From a virus: 13,693 nucleotides of DNA. The notes under the pieces were generated by a model. That model ran no database searches. It was not told the DNA's origin and saw only the letters and a program-made list of their open reading frames with translations. Shown here piece after piece: positions 1,245-9,015 of the stretch; the first letter of the stretch is position 1; every line of letters starts with the position of its first letter. The stretch lies in UHGV virus genome UHGV-0482402; one strand, 5' to 3'. The position numbers were made by a program, and so were the translations under genes.

Positions 1245-2558
1245 ATGGATAAAGTCAAATATCCAACAGGCGTCGAAAACCACGGCGGCACATTACGCAT
1301 CTGGTTTAATTTTAAAGGTAAACGTGTCAGGGAAAATCTTGGTGTCCCTGACACTGCCAAGAACAGGAAGATCGCCGGGGAACTGCGGACATCAGTATGT
1401 TTTGCCATCCGCACAGGAAGCTTTGATTATGCTGCACAGTTCCCTGACTCCCCCAACCTTCAGGCTTTTGGGGTAAGTAAAAAAGAAATTACGGTGAAGG
1501 AACTTGAAGAAAAGTGGCTGGATCTGAAACGAATGGAAATCTCTGCAAATGCATTCAATCGCTATGAATCCGTTGCAAGAACGATGGTTCCGAAAATTGG
1601 AGGCAGTAGACTGGTGTCATCGGTAACCAAAGAGGAATTGCTGTATATCAGGAAAGATTTGCTGACCGGGTATCAGAATTCAACGAAAAACAAAGCAGCA
1701 GCAAAAGGACGGAGCGTCGTTACTGTAAATTATTACATGACGACAATCGCTGGAATGTTTCAGTTTGCTGCAGATCACGGTTACTTAGAAGCAAATCCCT
1801 TCCAGGGAATTAAGCCTCTTAAAAGAGCCAGGGCAGAGCCAGATCCGCTAACTCGTGACGAATTTATTCGCCTGATAGATGCTTGCCGACATCAGCAGAC
1901 GAAAAACCTGTGGTCATTGGCTGTGTACACAGGAATGCGTCACGGTGAACTGGTCTCCCTGGCCTGGGAAGATATCGATCTGAAGGCAGGAACAATTACC
2001 ATCAGGCGCAATTATACGAAACTTGGTGAGTTCACTCTACCGAAAACTGAAGCAAGCACAAACAGGGTTGTGCACCTTATCCAGCCCGCTATCAGTGTCC
2101 TGAAAAATCAGGCTGAAATGACAAGACTGGGTAAGCAGTACAACATCAAGGTGCAACTACGTGAATATGGACGTTCAGTGAACCATGAATGTACTTTCGT
2201 GTTTAACCCTCAAGTGGTTAGAAAAAGCGAACAGGTAGGTTTTGTCTACAAAGTCGATTCTGTAGGTGACTCATGGGAAACAGCCATTAAGCGTGCAGGG
2301 ATCAGGCATCGAAAGGCATACCAGTCACGACACACTTATGCGTGCTGGTCATTATCTGCCGGAGCAAACCCAAGCTTCATTGCCAGCCAGATGGGCCATG
2401 CAAGTGCCCAGATGGTATTCAATGTATACGGAGCATGGATGACTGACAGCAATGCAGAACAGATCGCAATGCTGAATCAGAAGCTGACAGATTATGTCCC
2501 AATGATGCCCCATAGTCACCAAAGTGACACCAGAGGCTTATTAAAATCAGTAAGTTAA
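1245..2558 (+). CDS. int: tyrosine site-specific integrase (lambda Int family, with N-terminal arm-binding domain)
   Basis: 437 aa. The N-terminus (YPTGVENHGGTLRIWFNFKGKRVRENLG) looks like an arm-type DNA-binding domain. The C-terminus has the catalytic signature region ...RHRKAYQSRHTYACW...HASAQMVFNVYGAW (R, H-x-x-R and a C-terminal Tyr). GGAGGT lies 4 nt before the ATG. Confidence 0.9.
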   Translation: MDKVKYPTGVENHGGTLRIWFNFKGKRVRENLGVPDTAKNRKIAGELRTSVCFAIRTGSFDYAAQFPDSPNLQAFGVSKKEITVKELEEKWLDLKRMEISANAFNRYESVARTMVPKIGGSRLVSSVTKEELLYIRKDLLTGYQNSTKNKAAAKGRSVVTVNYYMTTIAGMFQFAADHGYLEANPFQGIKPLKRARAEPDPLTRDEFIRLIDACRHQQTKNLWSLAVYTGMRHGELVSLAWEDIDLKAGTITIRRNYTKLGEFTLPKTEASTNRVVHLIQPAISVLKNQAEMTRLGKQYNIKVQLREYGRSVNHECTFVFNPQVVRKSEQVGFVYKVDSVGDSWETAIKRAGIRHRKAYQSRHTYACWSLSAGANPSFIASQMGHASAQMVFNVYGAWMTDSNAEQIAMLNQKLTDYVPMMPHSHQSDTRGLLKSVS

Positions 2559-2783: not shown

Positions 2784-2835
2784 TTGACACTGTTTATCCA
2801 TACAGTTAAAAATAATACTGTATACAAACACAGTG
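2784..2835 (+). promoter_or_regulatory. dinI promoter with two tandem LexA (SOS) boxes
   Basis: Consensus -35 TTGACA at 2784-2789. LexA-type CTGT-N8-ACAG boxes at 2790-2805 (CTGTTTATCCATACAG) and 2818-2833 (CTGTATACAAACACAG). An A/T-rich -10 candidate lies at 2807-2816. The Shine-Dalgarno AGAGGGA is at 2836-2842 and the dinI ATG at 2849. Confidence 0.6.
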
Positions 2836-2848
2836 TAGAGGGACTTTT

Positions 2849-3097
2849 ATGCGTATTGAGATCTGCATAGCCAAAGAAAAAATGACTAAAATGCCAACCG
2901 GTGCTGTGGATGCGTTAAAGGAAGAATTAACTCGGCGCATCAGTAAGCGTTATGACGATGTAGAAGTGATCGTAAAAGCCACCAGCAATGATGGGCTTTC
3001 TGTTACACGCACAGCAGATAAGGATTCTGCAAAAACATTTGTTCAGGAGACTCTGAAAGATACCTGGGAGTCTGCTGACGAGTGGTTTGTTCACTAA
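2849..3097 (+). CDS. dinI: DinI-family protein (RecA co-protease modulator)
   Basis: The 82-aa translation [37 protein letters not shown]...[16 protein letters not shown] aligns along its length with E. coli DinI as recalled (MRIEVTIAK...ETWESADDWFVSE). LexA boxes lie upstream. Confidence 0.85.
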
Positions 3098-3165
3098 TAA
3101 ACACGTAAAATCGGTAACGGCTGGAAATCATTCAATACTCGCACTATCGAAAGTTAACCAGCCAA

Positions 3166-3203
3166 CCGCAGTATCCTGTCATGACAAGTTACTGCGGCTT
3201 TTT
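3166..3203 (+). terminator. rho-independent terminator downstream of dinI
   Basis: Inverted repeat CCGCAGTA (3166-3173) and TACTGCGG (3190-3197), followed by CTTTTTACTTTTT. Confidence 0.45.
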
Positions 3204-3214
3204 ACTTTTTATAT

Positions 3215-3502
3215 TTAACGGATCAACATCCAGATCAGCAGACACGCCACCACCGGCACAGCAAAATCCATCAGGCTTGCCACATCCCACGCGCGTGGAT
3301 CAAAACCGCCCCACCACGGCATGTTAATCCGCTTGCCATGCCCGAACATTTCAATCCAGCGATATTCTGCCTGGGTGTGTTCCCGCGCAATGAAGAACGT
3401 ACAACCGGCTATCGCACCGTAAGCCCAGTTTCCGGTAAAAAGACCACCCAGTACCTGTGCGACCACAGCGCAAAGTGCGTGATGAATTGGGGTTTTATCC
3501 AT
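3215..3502 (-). CDS. small integral membrane protein (95 aa), translationally coupled to the tailspike gene; function unknown
   Basis: ATG at 3502-3500 directly abuts the tailspike stop (minus strand reads TAG-ATG). Hydrophobic segments are AVVAQVLGGLFTGNWAYGAIAGCTFFIA and LMDFAVPVVACLLIWMLI. It sits where P22 and Sf6 carry O-antigen conversion genes, between tailspike and att. Confidence 0.6.
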   Translation of the reverse strand: MDKTPIHHALCAVVAQVLGGLFTGNWAYGAIAGCTFFIAREHTQAEYRWIEMFGHGKRINMPWWGGFDPRAWDVASLMDFAVPVVACLLIWMLIR

Positions 3503-6088
3503 CTACTCTATCTCTTTTGCTTTTTTAATTATCAATTCAAGCTCTGTTAAACGAGATTCAATACGTTCACACCTTCTTCGCTGGAATGCAGCCTCCAACC
3601 ACAAACATTCATCTGGACGCAATCCCCAACGCTCACCAGCATGTACAACCAGTTCCGTGTCACCAGTATCGTATTCTTCAAAGTATTCGTGAACGATGTC
3701 TTCTCCTTCAGGGGATTTAGCTATAAATGACACCTTGCGCTGTGCCATTACAGGTTGGTACTCATCATCCCATTTATCATGACATAGCAAGCCAAATCTT
3801 GTTCCATCTATCCCCTTTGCAAGAAACGCATCTCTTACCTGCTGTGCAATTGCTCCGAAATGCCAACGAGCAGTATCCGAACCTTTAGCCTTAATATCGG
3901 ACAACCACTGGTAAACGATAATATTTACGTCACCCCATGCGTCAAGAATTGCATCCTGATCCACCTCCATGATTTCTGAAAGTTGCTCTACTGTCAGTGG
4001 CTTTGTTTTCAATGTCTGGTCTGAAGTATTTATTGCCCCATTAGTTGCATATACTTGCGTCCACCGTTTAGATGATGTCCCACATGATGACGTATTATCT
4101 TTATTAGCACTTATATAGCCATTAACCTCCGCTGACTGACCGATATACGAATATGAAGATGTTGATAAGGGAGATTTAAATATCCATTGAGCATTGGTAA
4201 AGTCATAAATACCGGTATCACCTTTTTCACTAACATGAAAAGTTACATTCCGTAACGTATTCTTTGCATCATAACGGGCGGCTTGTGTTGTTGCCCTCGA
4301 AACAGTGAATCCTTTGTCATCAAGGTTTGCCTGCTCTATGACTTCACCACCAGGCATAATTTTACCAAGGCTTAACAAACCAGAGTTAGTGACAATATCA
4401 TGGGTTGAATCAATGATAATACCAGGCTGATTTCTTGATGTTGTTTTTACATGCATTACCTGTTGTGGCATTAATGTGTAAAATGTAGTTTCTCGCCCAC
4501 TATCACCATCTGGTATGCCATTTGTATTCCCCATTACAAGGTCATACCCACCTGCAATCATACGGAAAAACATTGCTTCTGGTTCATATGTAAGATTGCT
4601 AACATCTGGCGTTCCGGTATCATTTGGATCTGCTATTTCATAGGCTCTTCCTGCACCTGCCTGTATTTGCTGCACCCCAAGATAAACACCATCAAGTGTG
4701 TACTGATGCAAATATTTTCTGGTTGAAGAATATGCAGATCCAGCCTGACAAAAATAAATAGCAGTACCGTCACACGCAACTGTTTGCATATCCCTCACAA
4801 AATCGGCAATTTCAAATTCAAAAGTTGCTTCATTACGATAATCGTAATTGTACGCCTGCGGGTTAATAAATTTGCTGGTATCAAATACTTTTACATAATA
4901 GCGAATTTGATCTGGTGTTGATGGGCTCTCACCAGGGCCAACATAACGTTTTGCTGTAGTAATCAGCCATCGACTCATAGGGTCGGTGCATAAAACATTT
5001 ACCTGATTCTCGTAACCATCTTCCCATATGAGAAAAAACTCTGGTTCAATTTCACCACCATCAGTAGGGGTGAATCTGGTGATATACTTTGCGCGATCCT
5101 CTCCTTTAGCTGTGCCAGCTAACCCCCATATCTGTAACTGGCCTCTTGTGTTACGAAAACCAACGCGCCCTATGGTTAAACCAAGACATTGATGTCCTAA
5201 TTCTCTACTACCTTTAGTCTCCCAAAGAGGAGTTAACTCTTCATTCCCAAACCAATTATAAGCAACAACTTTATTAACTTCATCACCAGAACTAACGCTG
5301 CCACTCACATTTACCAAGCAATAAAGAACACTGTCATAATAATCAAGAACAGCACCCTGTATGACAGTATTTTTAATTGTTGCCAGTCGCAACCCTGACT
5401 TAACATGATTAGGAGTAGAAGGTCTGAAACCTGTATACATCCCCTTTTTTATAGTTTGTATTCTTTTTTCAGTAAAATCAGCATCTGGCAGTAATCGATT
5501 CTCTGTGCGAAAATAGCCATTTATATACTTATTTCCATCAAAAACTTGATCTGTTATATATGTATTACCCCTTAGATCAACAATCCTTCCTGTGATTTGT
5601 TTTTCTAACTCTTGAAAAGATAATGTGTCATCGGTGATGCCATCACCTTTTGCTCCCCATCCGCGAGGGTCAGCGTCATCACGCCACCGAGACATCTGCA
5701 ATTCATGATATTTTTTAGCACCTTCCGGGTCTTCTAATTGTTGTCTTAATTGGTCTGGATCGTACTTAAGCACATTCGGAAAATAGAACTGCTGCGTACC
5801 ATATGCATCGTAAACAGCCATAGAATGGCCTTGCACGGTAACGAATTTGGAAATCTGTCCGTTGTATACCGGGTATCCAGCAGCATTGATAACGATTGGC
5901 TGTGGCACCTGAACATAAGTACCATCTTCTCGTTCCAGATATACTGGAATCTGGTTTTCTGGATTTACCGGATCTGTGTCAATCTTACCGATATAAATTT
6001 TTCCATTTGCTACGGTTTTAAAAGAGCTAGCCATTGTGAAGAGTTGCGATGGCATACCTATCACAACATTTGGGGTTATATCAGGCAT
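3503..6088 (-). CDS. tailspike protein: P22 gp9-type head-binding domain, central pectate-lyase-type beta-helix (putative polysaccharide depolymerase) and C-terminal S74-type intramolecular chaperone
   Basis: The N-terminus [50 protein letters not shown]...[13 protein letters not shown]...NVLKYDPDQ matches the recalled P22 tailspike N-terminus (MTDITANVVV...[27 protein letters not shown]...[13 protein letters not shown]...NVLKYDPDQ). [13 protein letters not shown] beta-helix signature follows. The C-terminal roughly 173 aa begin at NTSDQTLK (Ser codon at 4022-4024) and end in a coiled coil. The start is placed at the ATG at 6088 (AGGA 8 nt upstream), not at the track start 6181. Confidence 0.9.
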
Positions 6089-6430
6089 ATTAGTCATCCT
6101 GTTTGAAGATTTAGATATTGAAGAAAACGGAATGACTGCAGACAACGATGCAATTGTTTTGAAAAATAACCTTCTATTCATTTAAAAACCATGCAACATG
6201 AACAAAACGATTATTTTACAATACTCAAGAATCTTGATCAACAGGCATATTATTTATGCGCTTAATGCGTCACTTACAAAAATAAAAACAAGTAATACCT
6301 TTATTCCTATCGTCCATGATTTTTATTTTCAAACATTATTAAATAACAATTCCTATTTATAATATCTGTCATTTAATTTGCTCCAGATACAAGTAATCGC
6401 TGCAGCGTGGCTACGGTGAATTTTGGGCAT

Positions 6431-6472: not shown

Positions 6473-7375
6473 TCAGTAGTTATGTACTGAAGGAGGTAAT
6501 TCTTTATTCTTAAGTCTCATCCATGCGGAAAGATTCGTTGGTCCATCTGGCTCATTGATATCAACATCTCGTGTGTGATTGATTAAAACGTCTCTCGCCA
6601 TTCCAATAACATACGAGAACTCATGACCGTAGTCGTAGCATCTGCCGGAATAGTTAGACTGAATTTGTTTTAGCGCCGGATACAGTTCGCGGAATAATGC
6701 CTGTGAGCGGTTGGCATAATCCCATAACCATACAAGGCTGTTTGCTTCTTTTGCAGAAAGCTCGTTGGTTTTCTTCTCTTGTTTGCCGATGAATTCGCCT
6801 TCAAGCACTACCCTGTGGATGTACTCTACGGCTTGCGGTATCTGAGACGCATCAAGCTCTTCAATACTTTCCACATTGAAACGCTGATGAATCATTGCAT
6901 AAGCTTCTGGGTACATTAGATGCTTTTTGCTGACCAGCATATTTACAGCATCACGAAGCGGAGTCCTGTCATCAACAGATGTTTTCTTACGTGCATTTTC
7001 TGCCTCTCCCTTTGTCCAGTAGTCATGCAGCACAGTAAAGCATTCTTCCTGGTACTGAATCAGTTTATCGCGGATGTCAGCACGAACTTTCTCAGGGTTG
7101 ATGCTGAACAGCCATCCATTTAACTTCTTCAAAGGAAGGCAGAGTAGCTTACGAAGCTTACCATCAGCGGCAACCATGTTCATATGAACACAGTTGAATT
7201 TGCTAATCTGCTTCATGAGTTTTGTTTGCTGCGTTGACCAGCTCATTCCAAGGTTTTCAACGATTGGCTTCATCGCAACATATGCAACTCCGGCAGCCAT
7301 GGCGGTGATAATTTGCTGACCGTTGAATGGTACGTAAGAGGTGTTCACTGCTTCTAAAATTGCTATACTATTCAT
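6473..7375 (-). CDS. ant: antirepressor Ant
   Basis: 300 aa from the ATG at 7375 ([29 protein letters not shown]...). GGAG lies upstream. It is immediately downstream of an Arc-like RHH gene and upstream of the tailspike, the same order as P22 arc-ant-gene 9. The track start at 7441 is a TTG that overlaps arc. Confidence 0.8.
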
Positions 7376-7447
7376 GTTGGTTTTTCTCCACGGATTTACT
7401 GACAACCGAAGCCCTGACTGTTCCCGCAGTTGGGGCTTCAACTTTTT
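7376..7447 (+). ncRNA. candidate sar-like antisense RNA covering the ant ribosome-binding site
   Basis: A plus-strand -10-like TATACT at 7364-7369 sits inside the first ant codons. A plus-strand intrinsic terminator follows: stem GAAGCCC (7408-7414) and GGGCTTC (7433-7439) with an inner ACTG/CAGT pairing, then AACTTTTT. The roughly 70-nt product would be antisense to the ant Shine-Dalgarno and start codon, like P22 sar. Confidence 0.4.
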
Positions 7448-7578
7448 AGGCTGCGAATAAGACGCTGCACTATTTCTGAATTTAAAGACCTGCCCTCCTC
7501 CTTAGCCTTTTCCTTCAATTTTTCTTTAATCTCTGGCGGGATACGAATCCCTAATGGAGCGATGTCTCTAACTTTCAT
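7438..7578 (-). CDS. arc: Arc-like ribbon-helix-helix repressor (46 aa)
   Basis: Minus-strand ORF missing from the track: [46 protein letters not shown]. It has the RHH signature (N-terminal beta-strand, then G-R-S-hNSEI) and lies directly upstream of ant. The Shine-Dalgarno is TGAGGGG. Confidence 0.7.
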
Positions 7579-7591
7579 TTCCCCTCACTTG

Positions 7592-7677
7592 CTACACCGT
7601 GATAACTAAATACTACACCGTGTTTATTTAAAGTCAAAATTTTTTTGCCTACACTGTGTAGCTATGCACAGCGTGCA
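7592..7677. promoter_or_regulatory. divergent immI control region with operator-like repeats
   Basis: CTACACCGTG occurs at 7592-7601 and again at 7613-7622. A perfect 13-bp palindrome CTACACTGTGTAG sits at 7649-7661 and a second, TGCACAGCGTGCA, at 7665-7677. All lie between the divergent arc (minus) and RHH-1 (plus) start codons. Confidence 0.45.
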
Positions 7678-7686
7678 GGAGGAGAA

Positions 7687-7926
7687 ATGAAAGGTGCAAG
7701 AGATATCAGTCCATTGGGGATTAGGATTCCAGACTATTTAAAGAAACGCATTCAGCAAGAAGCGGATAAAAACGGCAGATCAATGAACTCAGAGATCGTG
7801 CTTATCCTTCAAAAACATGTTGATAATCTTGATGGCTCTCGCTCACTTGAAGGATTCGCTAACCAAGAAGCTGATAAATTCAAAGAGGCGCTACTTGAGA
7901 CGCTAAAGACCATGTATGGTAAATAA
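7687..7926 (+). CDS. ribbon-helix-helix repressor, Mnt-like architecture (RHH plus C-terminal helical oligomerisation tail), paralogue 1
   Basis: ATG at 7687 follows GGAGGAG. Translation is MKGARDISPLGIRIPDYLKKRIQQEADKNGRSMNSEIVLILQKH...EADKFKEALLETLKTMYGK. The N-terminal strand (RDISPLGIRIP) is nearly identical to that of the divergent Arc-like protein ([11 protein letters not shown]). Confidence 0.7.
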   Translation: MKGARDISPLGIRIPDYLKKRIQQEADKNGRSMNSEIVLILQKHVDNLDGSRSLEGFANQEADKFKEALLETLKTMYGK

Positions 7927-7943
7927 TTATTCAGGATGTGCCG

Positions 7944-8201
7944 ATGTCTGATCGTAAGTACAAAAACCCTCAAGTGAATCTGAGGCTTCCTGTAGAGATA
8001 AAGGAACGTCTTATTGAACTGGCTGAGGCTAATTCTCGTTCATTAAATGCTGAGATGGTCGCGGCACTTGAAGCGTGGACAGAAAAAAATAAACACATTC
8101 AAGCACTAGACCTTGCAACTATAGCATCACGATTGATAGATCTTGAACATGATGTTGAGAAGTTGAAATGCATGTATAGCAACAATAAAGACGAAAGTTA
8201 G
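7944..8201 (+). CDS. ribbon-helix-helix repressor with Arc-type N-terminal strand and a C-terminal coiled-coil extension, paralogue 2
   Basis: ATG at 7944 is 7 nt after AGGA. Translation is MSDRKYKNPQVNLRLPVEIKERLIELAEANSRSLNAEMVAALEAW..., and its N-terminus resembles recalled P22 Arc (..PQFNLRWPREV..). Confidence 0.65.
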   Translation: MSDRKYKNPQVNLRLPVEIKERLIELAEANSRSLNAEMVAALEAWTEKNKHIQALDLATIASRLIDLEHDVEKLKCMYSNNKDES

Positions 8202-8224
8202 AGATACTAACTTGGAGTGATGGC

Positions 8225-8479
8225 ATGGCTAGAGACGATCCGCACTTTAACTTCCGTATGCCTTTGGAAGTAAGAGAAAAATTGAAATTAAGAGCAGAGG
8301 CTAACGGAAGGTCAATGAACTCAGAGTTATTACAAATCGTTCAGGATGCGCTATCAAAACCATCACCGATTGCAGGCTATCGCGACGATGCTGAACGCTT
8401 GGCTGATCAGCAAGCAGAGCAGTTCAAGGCCGTTGTGTTTGAGACACTTAAAAAGATTTATGGCAAGGATGAAAAATAA
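8225..8479 (+). CDS. mnt: Mnt repressor orthologue (ribbon-helix-helix)
   Basis: MARDDPHFNFRMPLEVREKLKLRAEANGRSMNSELLQIVQDALSKPSP... is near-identical over the N-terminal half to recalled P22 Mnt (MARDDPHFNFRMPMEVREKLKFRAEANGRSMNSELLQIVQDALSKPSP...). GGAG lies 7 nt upstream. Confidence 0.85.
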   Translation: MARDDPHFNFRMPLEVREKLKLRAEANGRSMNSELLQIVQDALSKPSPIAGYRDDAERLADQQAEQFKAVVFETLKKIYGKDEK

Positions 8480-9015
8480 TGCTGCACACAATTCATTTCT
8501 TATGCCCCGTTAACACTGCCACTGTTGGGCAACTTCAGAACCACTGTCTCACCGCATTATCTCAAGGCGCAACTGAATTAAATATCCATATATCAAGTCA
8601 GGGAGGGGAAACTGCCGCTGGCTTTACTGCGTATAACTTTCTTAAGTCACTCCCTGTTACCGTTAGAACTCACAACATAAGCAATGTTGAATCCATAGCT
8701 AATATCGTTTTCCTGGCTGGCTCAGAACGTTTCGCAAACCCATTATCAAGATTCCTGTTACATCCTCTATTATGGTGCTTTGCCTCCCCAGCCGCCGACC
8801 ATGCCAGATTGAGAGAGTACGGGAAATGCCTCGATAACGATCTTGATCGCTTCGTTGAGACGTTCAATATCGACATCGGAACCCATATTAGGTGGGCATC
8901 CCTGATAGCAGACTCGACCATTTTGGATGCTAACAAGGCTCTTGAGCATGGCATAATTAATTCCATAAAAACTGCAAGGCTGGTATCCAATCAGGCAAAC
9001 TGGTGGGTTGTTTGA
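8479..9015 (+). CDS. ClpP-like serine peptidase (ClpP/crotonase fold), translationally coupled to mnt
   Basis: Its ATG overlaps the mnt stop (TAATG). LNIHISSQGGETAAGFTAYNF...NVESIANIVFLAGSERFANPLSRFLLHP lines up with recalled E. coli ClpP ([21 protein letters not shown]...[32 protein letters not shown]). Candidate triad residues are the Ser in ESIAN, the His in LLHP and a downstream Asp in IADSTILD. Confidence 0.65.
   Translation: MLHTIHFLCPVNTATVGQLQNHCLTALSQGATELNIHISSQGGETAAGFTAYNFLKSLPVTVRTHNISNVESIANIVFLAGSERFANPLSRFLLHPLLWCFASPAADHARLREYGKCLDNDLDRFVETFNIDIGTHIRWASLIADSTILDANKALEHGIINSIKTARLVSNQANWWVV

Follow-up and report, generated by a model that had tools for sequence, protein, structure and literature searches.

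PHROG 1443, a family of small predicted inner-membrane proteins encoded after receptor-binding-protein genes in diverse phages

What is the role of a small membrane protein whose gene begins exactly where a tailspike gene ends? The question was raised by a 13,693-nucleotide stretch of the virus genome UHGV-0482402, all of which was analysed and is called the window here. It is a mosaic P22-like genome with ejection-protein genes, an immI-like region, a tailspike gene, the small ORF, a convergent dinI-like gene and an integrase gene. In the ORF list of the window, the small ORF was found at 3215..3502 on the minus strand, with an ATG start and 95 codons for amino acids. The minus-strand junction reads gagatagagTAGATGgataaa, in which the ATG of the small ORF lies immediately 3′ of the tailspike TAG (TAGATG, 3500..3505, minus strand). 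The abutting start codon and the same-strand operon layout, both claimed in an earlier sequence-only reading of this DNA, were confirmed from the sequence, and the layout recurs in other hosts. The junction is also a mosaic and compositional breakpoint, with a GC3 of 57% in the small ORF versus 30% in the tailspike. Given the TAGATG coupling, translation of the small protein is expected to occur on the late tailspike message, by termination-reinitiation.

The upstream tailspike ORF covers 3503..6181 on the minus strand (892 codons) and matches PHROG tail-spike families. Its Pfam matches were Head_binding at residues 32-144 and Peptidase_S74 at residues 720-786, showing a P22 head-binding domain combined with a Peptidase_S74 intramolecular-chaperone C-terminus. 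In Escherichia coli A26, a near-identical tailspike gene was annotated by PGAP with 2586 bases and abuts a gene for a 97-aa ‘hypothetical protein’. Because of this length, and because the Head_binding match begins there, the tailspike coding sequence probably starts near M29-M32, which gives a P22-type tailspike at roughly 3503..6088 on the minus strand. The mechanical ORF to 6181 carries an N-terminal extension of ~30 codons before this likely start. Further upstream, the immI-like region (6473-8479) was seen to hold a 322-aa ORF at 6473-7441, putatively antirepressor-like by position, and four short ORFs at 7438-7578 (minus), 7645-7926 (plus), 7938-8201 (plus) and 8225-8479 (plus). By eye, the four short ORFs putatively resemble Arc/Mnt repressors with a common N-terminal motif; a 178-aa ORF at 8479-9015 follows them.

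On the other side of the small ORF lie a DinI-like gene (2849..3097, plus strand), convergent on it, and a tyrosine integrase gene (1245..2558, plus strand) with Arm-DNA-bind_2 and Phage_integrase domains. Upstream of the dinI-like gene, a promoter-like site TTGACA...AAAAAT, overlapped by two LexA boxes, was found at 2784..2833 on the plus strand. The boxes are perfect matches to CTGT-N8-ACAG (2790-2805 and 2818-2833; 0.14 expected by chance), and the gene has the appearance of a dinI paralogue under SOS control, occupying the slot that gtrABC take in related phages. One such relative, the Salmonella Lederbergvirus 103203_sal5, has gtrA-gtrB-gtrC between int and the tailspike gene, on the integrase strand and convergent on the tailspike. 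Because the dinI-like gene lies on the same strand and has its own regulated promoter, and the small ORF is appended to the tailspike unit, the positional and architectural analogue of gtrABC here is the dinI-like gene and not the small ORF. The earlier assignment of the small ORF to a lysogenic-conversion slot between tailspike and att therefore stands as to position, as it does lie between tailspike and int where the relative has gtrABC, but fails as to architecture, since gtrABC form a unit of their own on the integrase strand.

A strong hairpin was found at 3164..3199, in the gap that separates the small ORF from the convergent dinI-like gene. On the plus strand it is followed by a T-run and so resembles a terminator of dinI; on the minus strand the T-run is weak. 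The hairpin was not picked up by the consensus terminator scan. Several further contexts preserve it along with the small ORF. In the E. coli A26 prophage that has the near-identical tailspike and small ORF (L159, 3758-5499), the dinI/int side is missing; next to thrS, its place is taken by a P-loop NTPase fragment and a gene for a 473-aa hypothetical protein, which may be defence-type cargo.

Database searches placed the small ORF in a family without assigned function. It matched PHROG 1443 with E=3e-56, residues 1-95 aligning to profile positions 1-95 of 97. Residues 52-95 also matched PHROG 34165, a 46-residue fragment family, and the only further PHROG match was a weak one to 9191; none of the three has an assigned function. 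Homologues fell into 568 clusters at 90% identity and 433 at 50% identity. By megablast, the family was found in 1906 of 5426 complete E. coli genomes (about a third), with a median of 2 copies and a maximum of 7, always labelled ‘hypothetical protein’, and 71 phage records matched the small protein by tblastn. The family occurs overwhelmingly in temperate phages and prophages and is also present in Aeromonas, Comamonas, Desulfovibrio, Halomonas and Sphingomonadales. The gene is under purifying selection, with a median dN/dS of 0.15 over 1043 sequence pairs. The full-length profile match, the many homologous clusters, the prevalence in E. coli and this dN/dS value make the ORF more than a chance reading frame, and the 95-codon ORF is almost certainly a genuine gene, one copy of the widespread, uncharacterised PHROG 1443. 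Since the family is already catalogued as PHROG 1443 and as a RefSeq ‘hypothetical protein’, the window ORF is a further copy of it.

The earlier statement that the protein belongs to no recognised family was correct for curated libraries: Pfam gave zero families at E<=1, NCBIfam zero, and the PADLOC-DB v2 defence profiles zero at E<=10. The remote-homology check that it had proposed was carried out with profile and fold searches, which returned no sequence or fold homologue with a biochemical lead. The family profile found nothing among PDB sequences at E<=10, the fold comparison of the small protein gave no match, and nothing relevant on the family was found in the literature. A profile search of 1.84 billion representatives showed no domain fusions among family members, hence no functional hint from that side; the listed members are all stand-alone proteins of 63-146 aa, mostly about 90-115 aa.

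Kyte-Doolittle analysis of the 95-aa protein gave hydrophobic segments at about 6-23, 27-39 and 74-94. An AlphaFold2 model built on 30 homologues reached a mean pLDDT of 92 and showed helices at 4-23, 26-52 and 74-94, with a Trp-rich loop at 53-73. The two to three transmembrane segments predicted in the sequence-only reading thus became three hydrophobic helices by both methods, and the small ORF can be described as encoding a predicted three-helix inner-membrane protein. Residue conservation was assessed in two sets, of 46 and 207 family members. Moderately diverged members show almost no variation at residues 39-50 (AREHTQAEYRWI) and 61-68 (MPWWGGFD). Distant members retain E41, W72 and P83 without exception, and H8, R40, Q44, A45 and E46 are at least 90% conserved. 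In the 207 members, conservation of at least 80% was found for H8, G24, G29, R40, E41, Q44, A45, E46, Y47, R48, I50, G56, R58, P62, W63, W72, D79 and P83. The window protein has the whole family core, H8 / R40-E41 / Q44-A45-E46 / W72 / P83.

The topology was predicted from the distribution of basic residues. The K+R count was 0.57 in the N-terminal tail, 0.05 in the turn between helices 1 and 2, 5.39 in the loop 40-73 and 0.54 in the C-terminal tail, so that by the positive-inside rule the loop and the N-terminus would lie in the cytoplasm; C-terminal tails are mildly basic, which tempers this prediction. Helices 1 and 2 would then form a hairpin, with the N-terminus cytoplasmic and the short C-terminus outside. 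A 35-residue, near-invariant mini-domain (R40-E41-x-x-Q44-A45-E46-Y47-R48 ... P62-W63 ... W72) is predicted on the cytoplasmic face, and the third helix would carry D79 and P83. In this arrangement, H8, E41, E46 and D79 appear to cluster at the cytoplasm-membrane interface, like a metal- or ligand-binding site. A lipobox-like IAGC was noticed at residues 31-34 and is seen in close relatives. A lipoprotein was considered and rejected, because C34 is A or S in some close relatives, is unconserved in distant ones and lies within predicted helix 26-52.

The genomic placement of the family was then compared across 84 phage and provirus loci. In 82 of them, the gene immediately upstream of the family member is a fibre or spike gene or the 92-aa companion ORF of one. 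The most frequent arrangement (40 loci) is a lambda stf-like fibre gene and the 92-aa ORF, with the family member about 9-12 nt after the latter. Fibres of 227-234 aa with S74 C-termini precede it at 26 loci (gap 9-13 nt), 346-aa S74 fibres at nine (42 nt) and a 299-aa relative of the 346-aa fibre at one (183 nt). P22-like S74 tailspikes precede it with a gap of 0 nt (TAGATG) at four loci from IMG/VR, another P22-like spike with a gap of 34 nt at one, and an epsilon15-like fibre with a gap of 91 nt at one. The two exceptions are the Halomonas myovirus phiHAP-1, where the order is fibre, tfa (tail-fibre-assembly), family member and sheath gene, and Aeromonas 62AhydR11PP, where the family gene lies one gene away from a convergent tailspike gene.

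Similar arrangements were found elsewhere. In a Desulfovibrio prophage, the family member follows a 935-aa S74 spike at gap 0; at other loci it overlaps the upstream gene (-1 or -4 nt); and in Leclercia, Chelativorans and Pantoea prophages it follows fibre genes. An intact member of a 236-kb Aeromonas jumbo phage lies between the terminase gene and a tail fibre gene, just upstream of the fibre. In two betaproteobacterial DGR loci (L116 and L117, 4785-8404), the member lies between a 370-383-aa ORF, possibly mtd-like by position, and the genes for bAvd and reverse transcriptase. The epsilon15-like phiv142-3 carries it between its tail fibre gene and a holin-endolysin-endopeptidase cassette. Proteins 84-94% identical were found behind unrelated lambdoid and P22-like receptor-binding proteins (RBPs), and the copy in the epsilon15-like context is about 81% identical; across these unrelated RBPs, no co-variation of the family with RBP type was seen. 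The family is thus placed after RBP genes across phage types, whatever the type of RBP. This adjacency could be positional rather than functional, as the end of the late operon is the classical slot for morons.

Two narrower associations were tried and rejected. An exclusive link to S74-type fibres does not hold, since half of the E. coli contexts have stf-type fibres and the 92-aa ORF, and no conserved downstream partner was found, as host genes or varied cargo follow. The ~92-aa ORF between the lambdoid stf-type fibre and the family member is itself conserved and uncharacterised (L001 4710-4988; L088 5710-5988; L160 9292-9570), and some prophages have an additional short S74 fibre gene separating the two. 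In phage 21 (L001, 5386-8835) and in the icd-adjacent prophage of UM146 (L160, 5445-8894), sitABCD, encoding an iron/manganese transporter, lies just beyond the family member and is convergent on it.

In the ExPEC strain UM146, the small gene is intact although the stf gene before it is a pseudogene. In virulent HC6-type phages, what is left of the gene is decayed and unannotated, with a stop inside helix 3; this remnant directly follows an 859-aa S74 tailspike gene (L086, 3938-4132, in Escherichia phage HC6; five similar records). Fragments of this kind appear to have been annotated as PHROG 34165 and as a 42-aa BFVD entry. Because the copy has decayed in these virulent phages, the small gene is dispensable for at least some lytic growth.

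Whether the gene has its own promoter bears on when it acts. When eight loci from five contexts were aligned, DNA homology between contexts began exactly at the ATG, with unrelated sequences upstream, and each context provides its own Shine-Dalgarno sequence before the family ATG. Upstream of the window ORF, the five promoter-like sites detected compare with a chance expectation of 4.0, and none stands out. With homology starting at the ATG and promoter matches at chance level, the cassette is promoter-less and depends on the RBP transcript. In the 346-aa fibre context, an intrinsic-terminator-like hairpin (GGGGCCGAGCGCCCC, then GTTTTATT) lies between the fibre stop codon and the family ATG; it is located at 5959-6000 of an IMG/VR provirus (L013), 21 nt before the ATG, with an identical sequence in L089. 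Given this hairpin and the lack of room for a promoter after it, only read-through transcription can express the family gene there. In lambdoid phages, such read-through would be Q-antiterminated late transcription. Together, these features suggest that the small gene is expressed late with the RBP.

This predicted expression pattern weighs on the main rival explanation, in which the gene is a moron that is expressed in the lysogen from its position after the tail-fibre genes and gives the host superinfection exclusion, defence or an envelope benefit. The conversion or exclusion idea of the sequence-only reading is a special case of it. Several observations fit this explanation: relatives carry gtrABC in the slot, cargo such as sitABCD adjoins, the family is biased to temperate phages and prophages and has decayed in HC6-type virulent phages, UM146 keeps an intact copy beside its stf pseudogene, and chromosomal homologues exist. 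The phiHAP-1 copy between tail-fibre-assembly and sheath genes fits as well; P2 carries Z/fun between the same two genes. However, the cassette begins at the ATG and brings no promoter, the gene invariably shares the strand of the late operon and is closely coupled to the gene before it, and one common context places a terminator ahead of it. Moreover, intact copies occur in the 236-kb Aeromonas jumbo phage, which we presume to be virulent, the several copies that genomes carry (median 2, up to 7) would be superfluous if the benefit were at the level of the host, and PADLOC gave no match. A lysogen-expressed moron is therefore somewhat doubtful in our judgement.

Homologues outside phages were found in alpha- and betaproteobacteria (Sphingomonas, Sphingomicrobium and MAGs), 45-55% identical and in housekeeping neighbourhoods without phage genes. 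The homologue directly follows ligA in four genomes (L140, L151, L152 and L153), lies upstream of ftsZ in two (L121 and L137) and upstream of the CFA synthase gene cfa in two (L134 and L142); at other chromosomal loci it comes after pnp, a flavoprotein gene, HerA or a deaminase gene. A conserved cellular neighbourhood was rejected, as ligA, ftsZ, cfa, pnp and the other neighbours share no consistent theme, and a neighbour taken for ftsA proved to be an MFS transporter gene. Since these chromosomal homologues lack phage genes around them, the activity of the family is not intrinsically phage-specific. Sphingomonadales have no classical LPS, and because many of the chromosomal hosts belong to this order, the activity is probably not tied to the LPS O-antigen.

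Such homologues raise the possibility of a borrowed housekeeping membrane protein, involved in inner-membrane or lipid homeostasis, whose phage copies supplement the cellular function late in infection or hitch-hike with RBP modules. Stand-alone copies by ligA, pnp, ftsZ and the CFA synthase gene are consistent with it, as are the absence of fusions to other domains and the lack of co-variation with RBP type. On the other hand, purely hitch-hiking genes would be expected to become unlinked quickly, as the breakpoints fall at the gene start; instead, the position after the RBP gene persists in E. coli, Desulfovibrio and Halomonas alike, and the gene is under strong purifying selection. We consider this explanation unlikely.

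The earlier reading had proposed a receptor-modifying or exclusion factor, framed around P22-like phages. The P22-specific framing did not survive the survey, since the family spans lambdoid and epsilon15-like contexts as well as non-phage chromosomes. A blocker or modifier of a specific receptor is also unlikely, because nearly the same protein stands behind unrelated RBPs and has chromosomal homologues outside phages; the predicted cytoplasmic location of the conserved loop speaks against receptor modification too.

The same survey bears on a membrane-anchored factor for RBP assembly or maturation; during assembly, the mini-domain in the cytoplasm would engage fibres, spikes or the S74 chaperone after its release. 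The position directly after the fibre gene is the classical fibre-chaperone position, gaps of 0, -1 and -4 nt imply stoichiometric coupling to the RBP, and S74-type fibres occur in about half of the E. coli contexts as well as in Desulfovibrio and HC6. Against this, the same protein is found behind structurally unrelated RBPs, including ones with their own Tfa-like gene, and the chromosomal homologues lack phage genes. P22 and lambda are absent among the tblastn matches listed (the best 60 of 71), and fibre assembly is not known to depend on a membrane. With regard to tail-fibre-assembly (Tfa) proteins, Pfam and PHROG searches gave no profile match, and the three predicted transmembrane helices are not of the soluble type. 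An assembly role thus appears highly improbable.

A role in lysis, as a holin, an antiholin or a modulator of lysis timing encoded downstream of the tail-fibre gene, would suit a small protein with several transmembrane helices whose gene lies late in the operon. The member in phiv142-3 lies next to a lysis cassette, and T7 17.5 and T4 t are precedents. However, no holin profile was matched in Pfam or PHROGs, and phiv142-3 was the only one of the contexts examined with a lysis cassette beside the family member. The window itself holds no lysis genes; the neighbours of the small ORF are the tailspike and dinI-like genes, with no endolysin gene nearby. The lambdoid and P22-like carriers presumably have a complete lysis cassette elsewhere, which we counted against a lysis role. 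Moreover, the invariant 12-residue polar motif, the predicted cytoplasmic mini-domain and the chromosomal homologues are unlike holins. That the ORF might be a known holin or lysis gene displaced to this position, as the sequence-only reading had considered, found no support in the Pfam and PHROG searches, which gave no holin match, and we regard a lysis-associated function in general as very unlikely.

The small protein thus seems to be neither a holin nor a lipoprotein nor a Gtr/Oac protein. The reading that we tentatively prefer, from sequence and predicted structure, is that it may be a late-expressed inner-membrane accessory factor which alters or blocks a conserved envelope function with an exclusion-like outcome; we hold it to be possible rather than probable. 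Located in the inner membrane, the protein would act late in infection, and its target would be a component that is conserved in Gram-negative envelopes, perhaps a lipid-linked precursor or else an inner-membrane machine, but not one particular receptor. Such a receptor-independent change or block of the envelope would benefit the infected cell or the progeny, with an outcome similar to exclusion.

A more specific form of this late envelope-directed role can be imagined, and it is unlikely to be correct in full. PHROG 1443 might represent an unrecognised class of minimal (~95 aa) inner-membrane metallo-enzymes or ligand binders with a His/Glu/Glu/Asp site at the cytoplasmic leaflet. Co-expressed with the RBP by lambdoid, P22-like, epsilon15-like, P2-like and jumbo phages, it would rewire a universal Gram-negative envelope pathway as a receptor-independent exclusion or shut-off module. 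If so, the pathway might be, for example, that of polyprenyl-phosphate-linked glycan precursors or an inner-membrane entry route, and the cellular orthologues would perform the same chemistry in Sphingomonadales.

The family is very common, shows strong conservation across E. coli, Desulfovibrio and Sphingomonas, and has a confidently predicted fold, yet it is without a structural or characterised sequence relative. Receptor-binding modules are the phage part most used for host-range engineering and prediction, and because an unexplained partner gene travels at the 3′ edge of these modules, PHROG 1443 is a practical blind spot. The family is also tractable, since cultivable carriers include phage 21, mEp460 and the PhiR phages on K-12 and ECOR13, and it could prove to be a new kind of RBP-linked module.

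Among known systems, the O-antigen conversion factors (GtrA/GtrABC, Oac, the epsilon15 polymerase inhibitor and D3 Iap) are likewise small and hydrophobic, and they share the interval in P22-like phages and the post-fibre position in epsilon15-like phage. Unlike them, the window family has no Pfam match and is also found in Sphingomonadales. The Pfam library includes GtrA-like and acyltransferase-3 models, and the search for such a match gave zero Pfam and zero NCBIfam families. A Gtr/Oac-type independent unit was rejected for the small ORF: the position fits, but the gene is on the tailspike strand, at a 0-nt gap and in a promoter-less cassette.

Cor (phi80, N15 and HK022) and T5 Llp are outer-membrane exclusion lipoproteins that block one receptor, FhuA, and are matched to their RBP. 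They resemble the window protein as small envelope proteins encoded beside an RBP gene, between the tail fibres and att. In contrast to them, the window protein is a predicted polytopic inner-membrane protein, has no conserved lipobox and is constant across RBP types. T7 gene 17.5, encoding the gp17.5 holin, follows gene 17, and T4 gene t, encoding the T holin, follows gene 38; both encode a small membrane protein 3′ of a fibre gene on a late transcript, as the window ORF does. The window family differs from them in its invariant polar motif, predicted to be cytoplasmic, in its cellular homologues and in having no adjacent endolysin gene.

T4 Imm, P22 SieA and HK97 gp15 are small inner-membrane superinfection-exclusion proteins that act independently of the outer-membrane receptor, and HK97 gp15 is a moron inside the tail operon. 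Pfam, PHROG and PADLOC searches detected no similarity to them, and they are expressed early or from the prophage with a promoter of their own, whereas the PHROG 1443 cassette has none. What the window protein, by its predicted topology, has in common with Imm, SieA and gp15 is that all are small inner-membrane proteins of phages.
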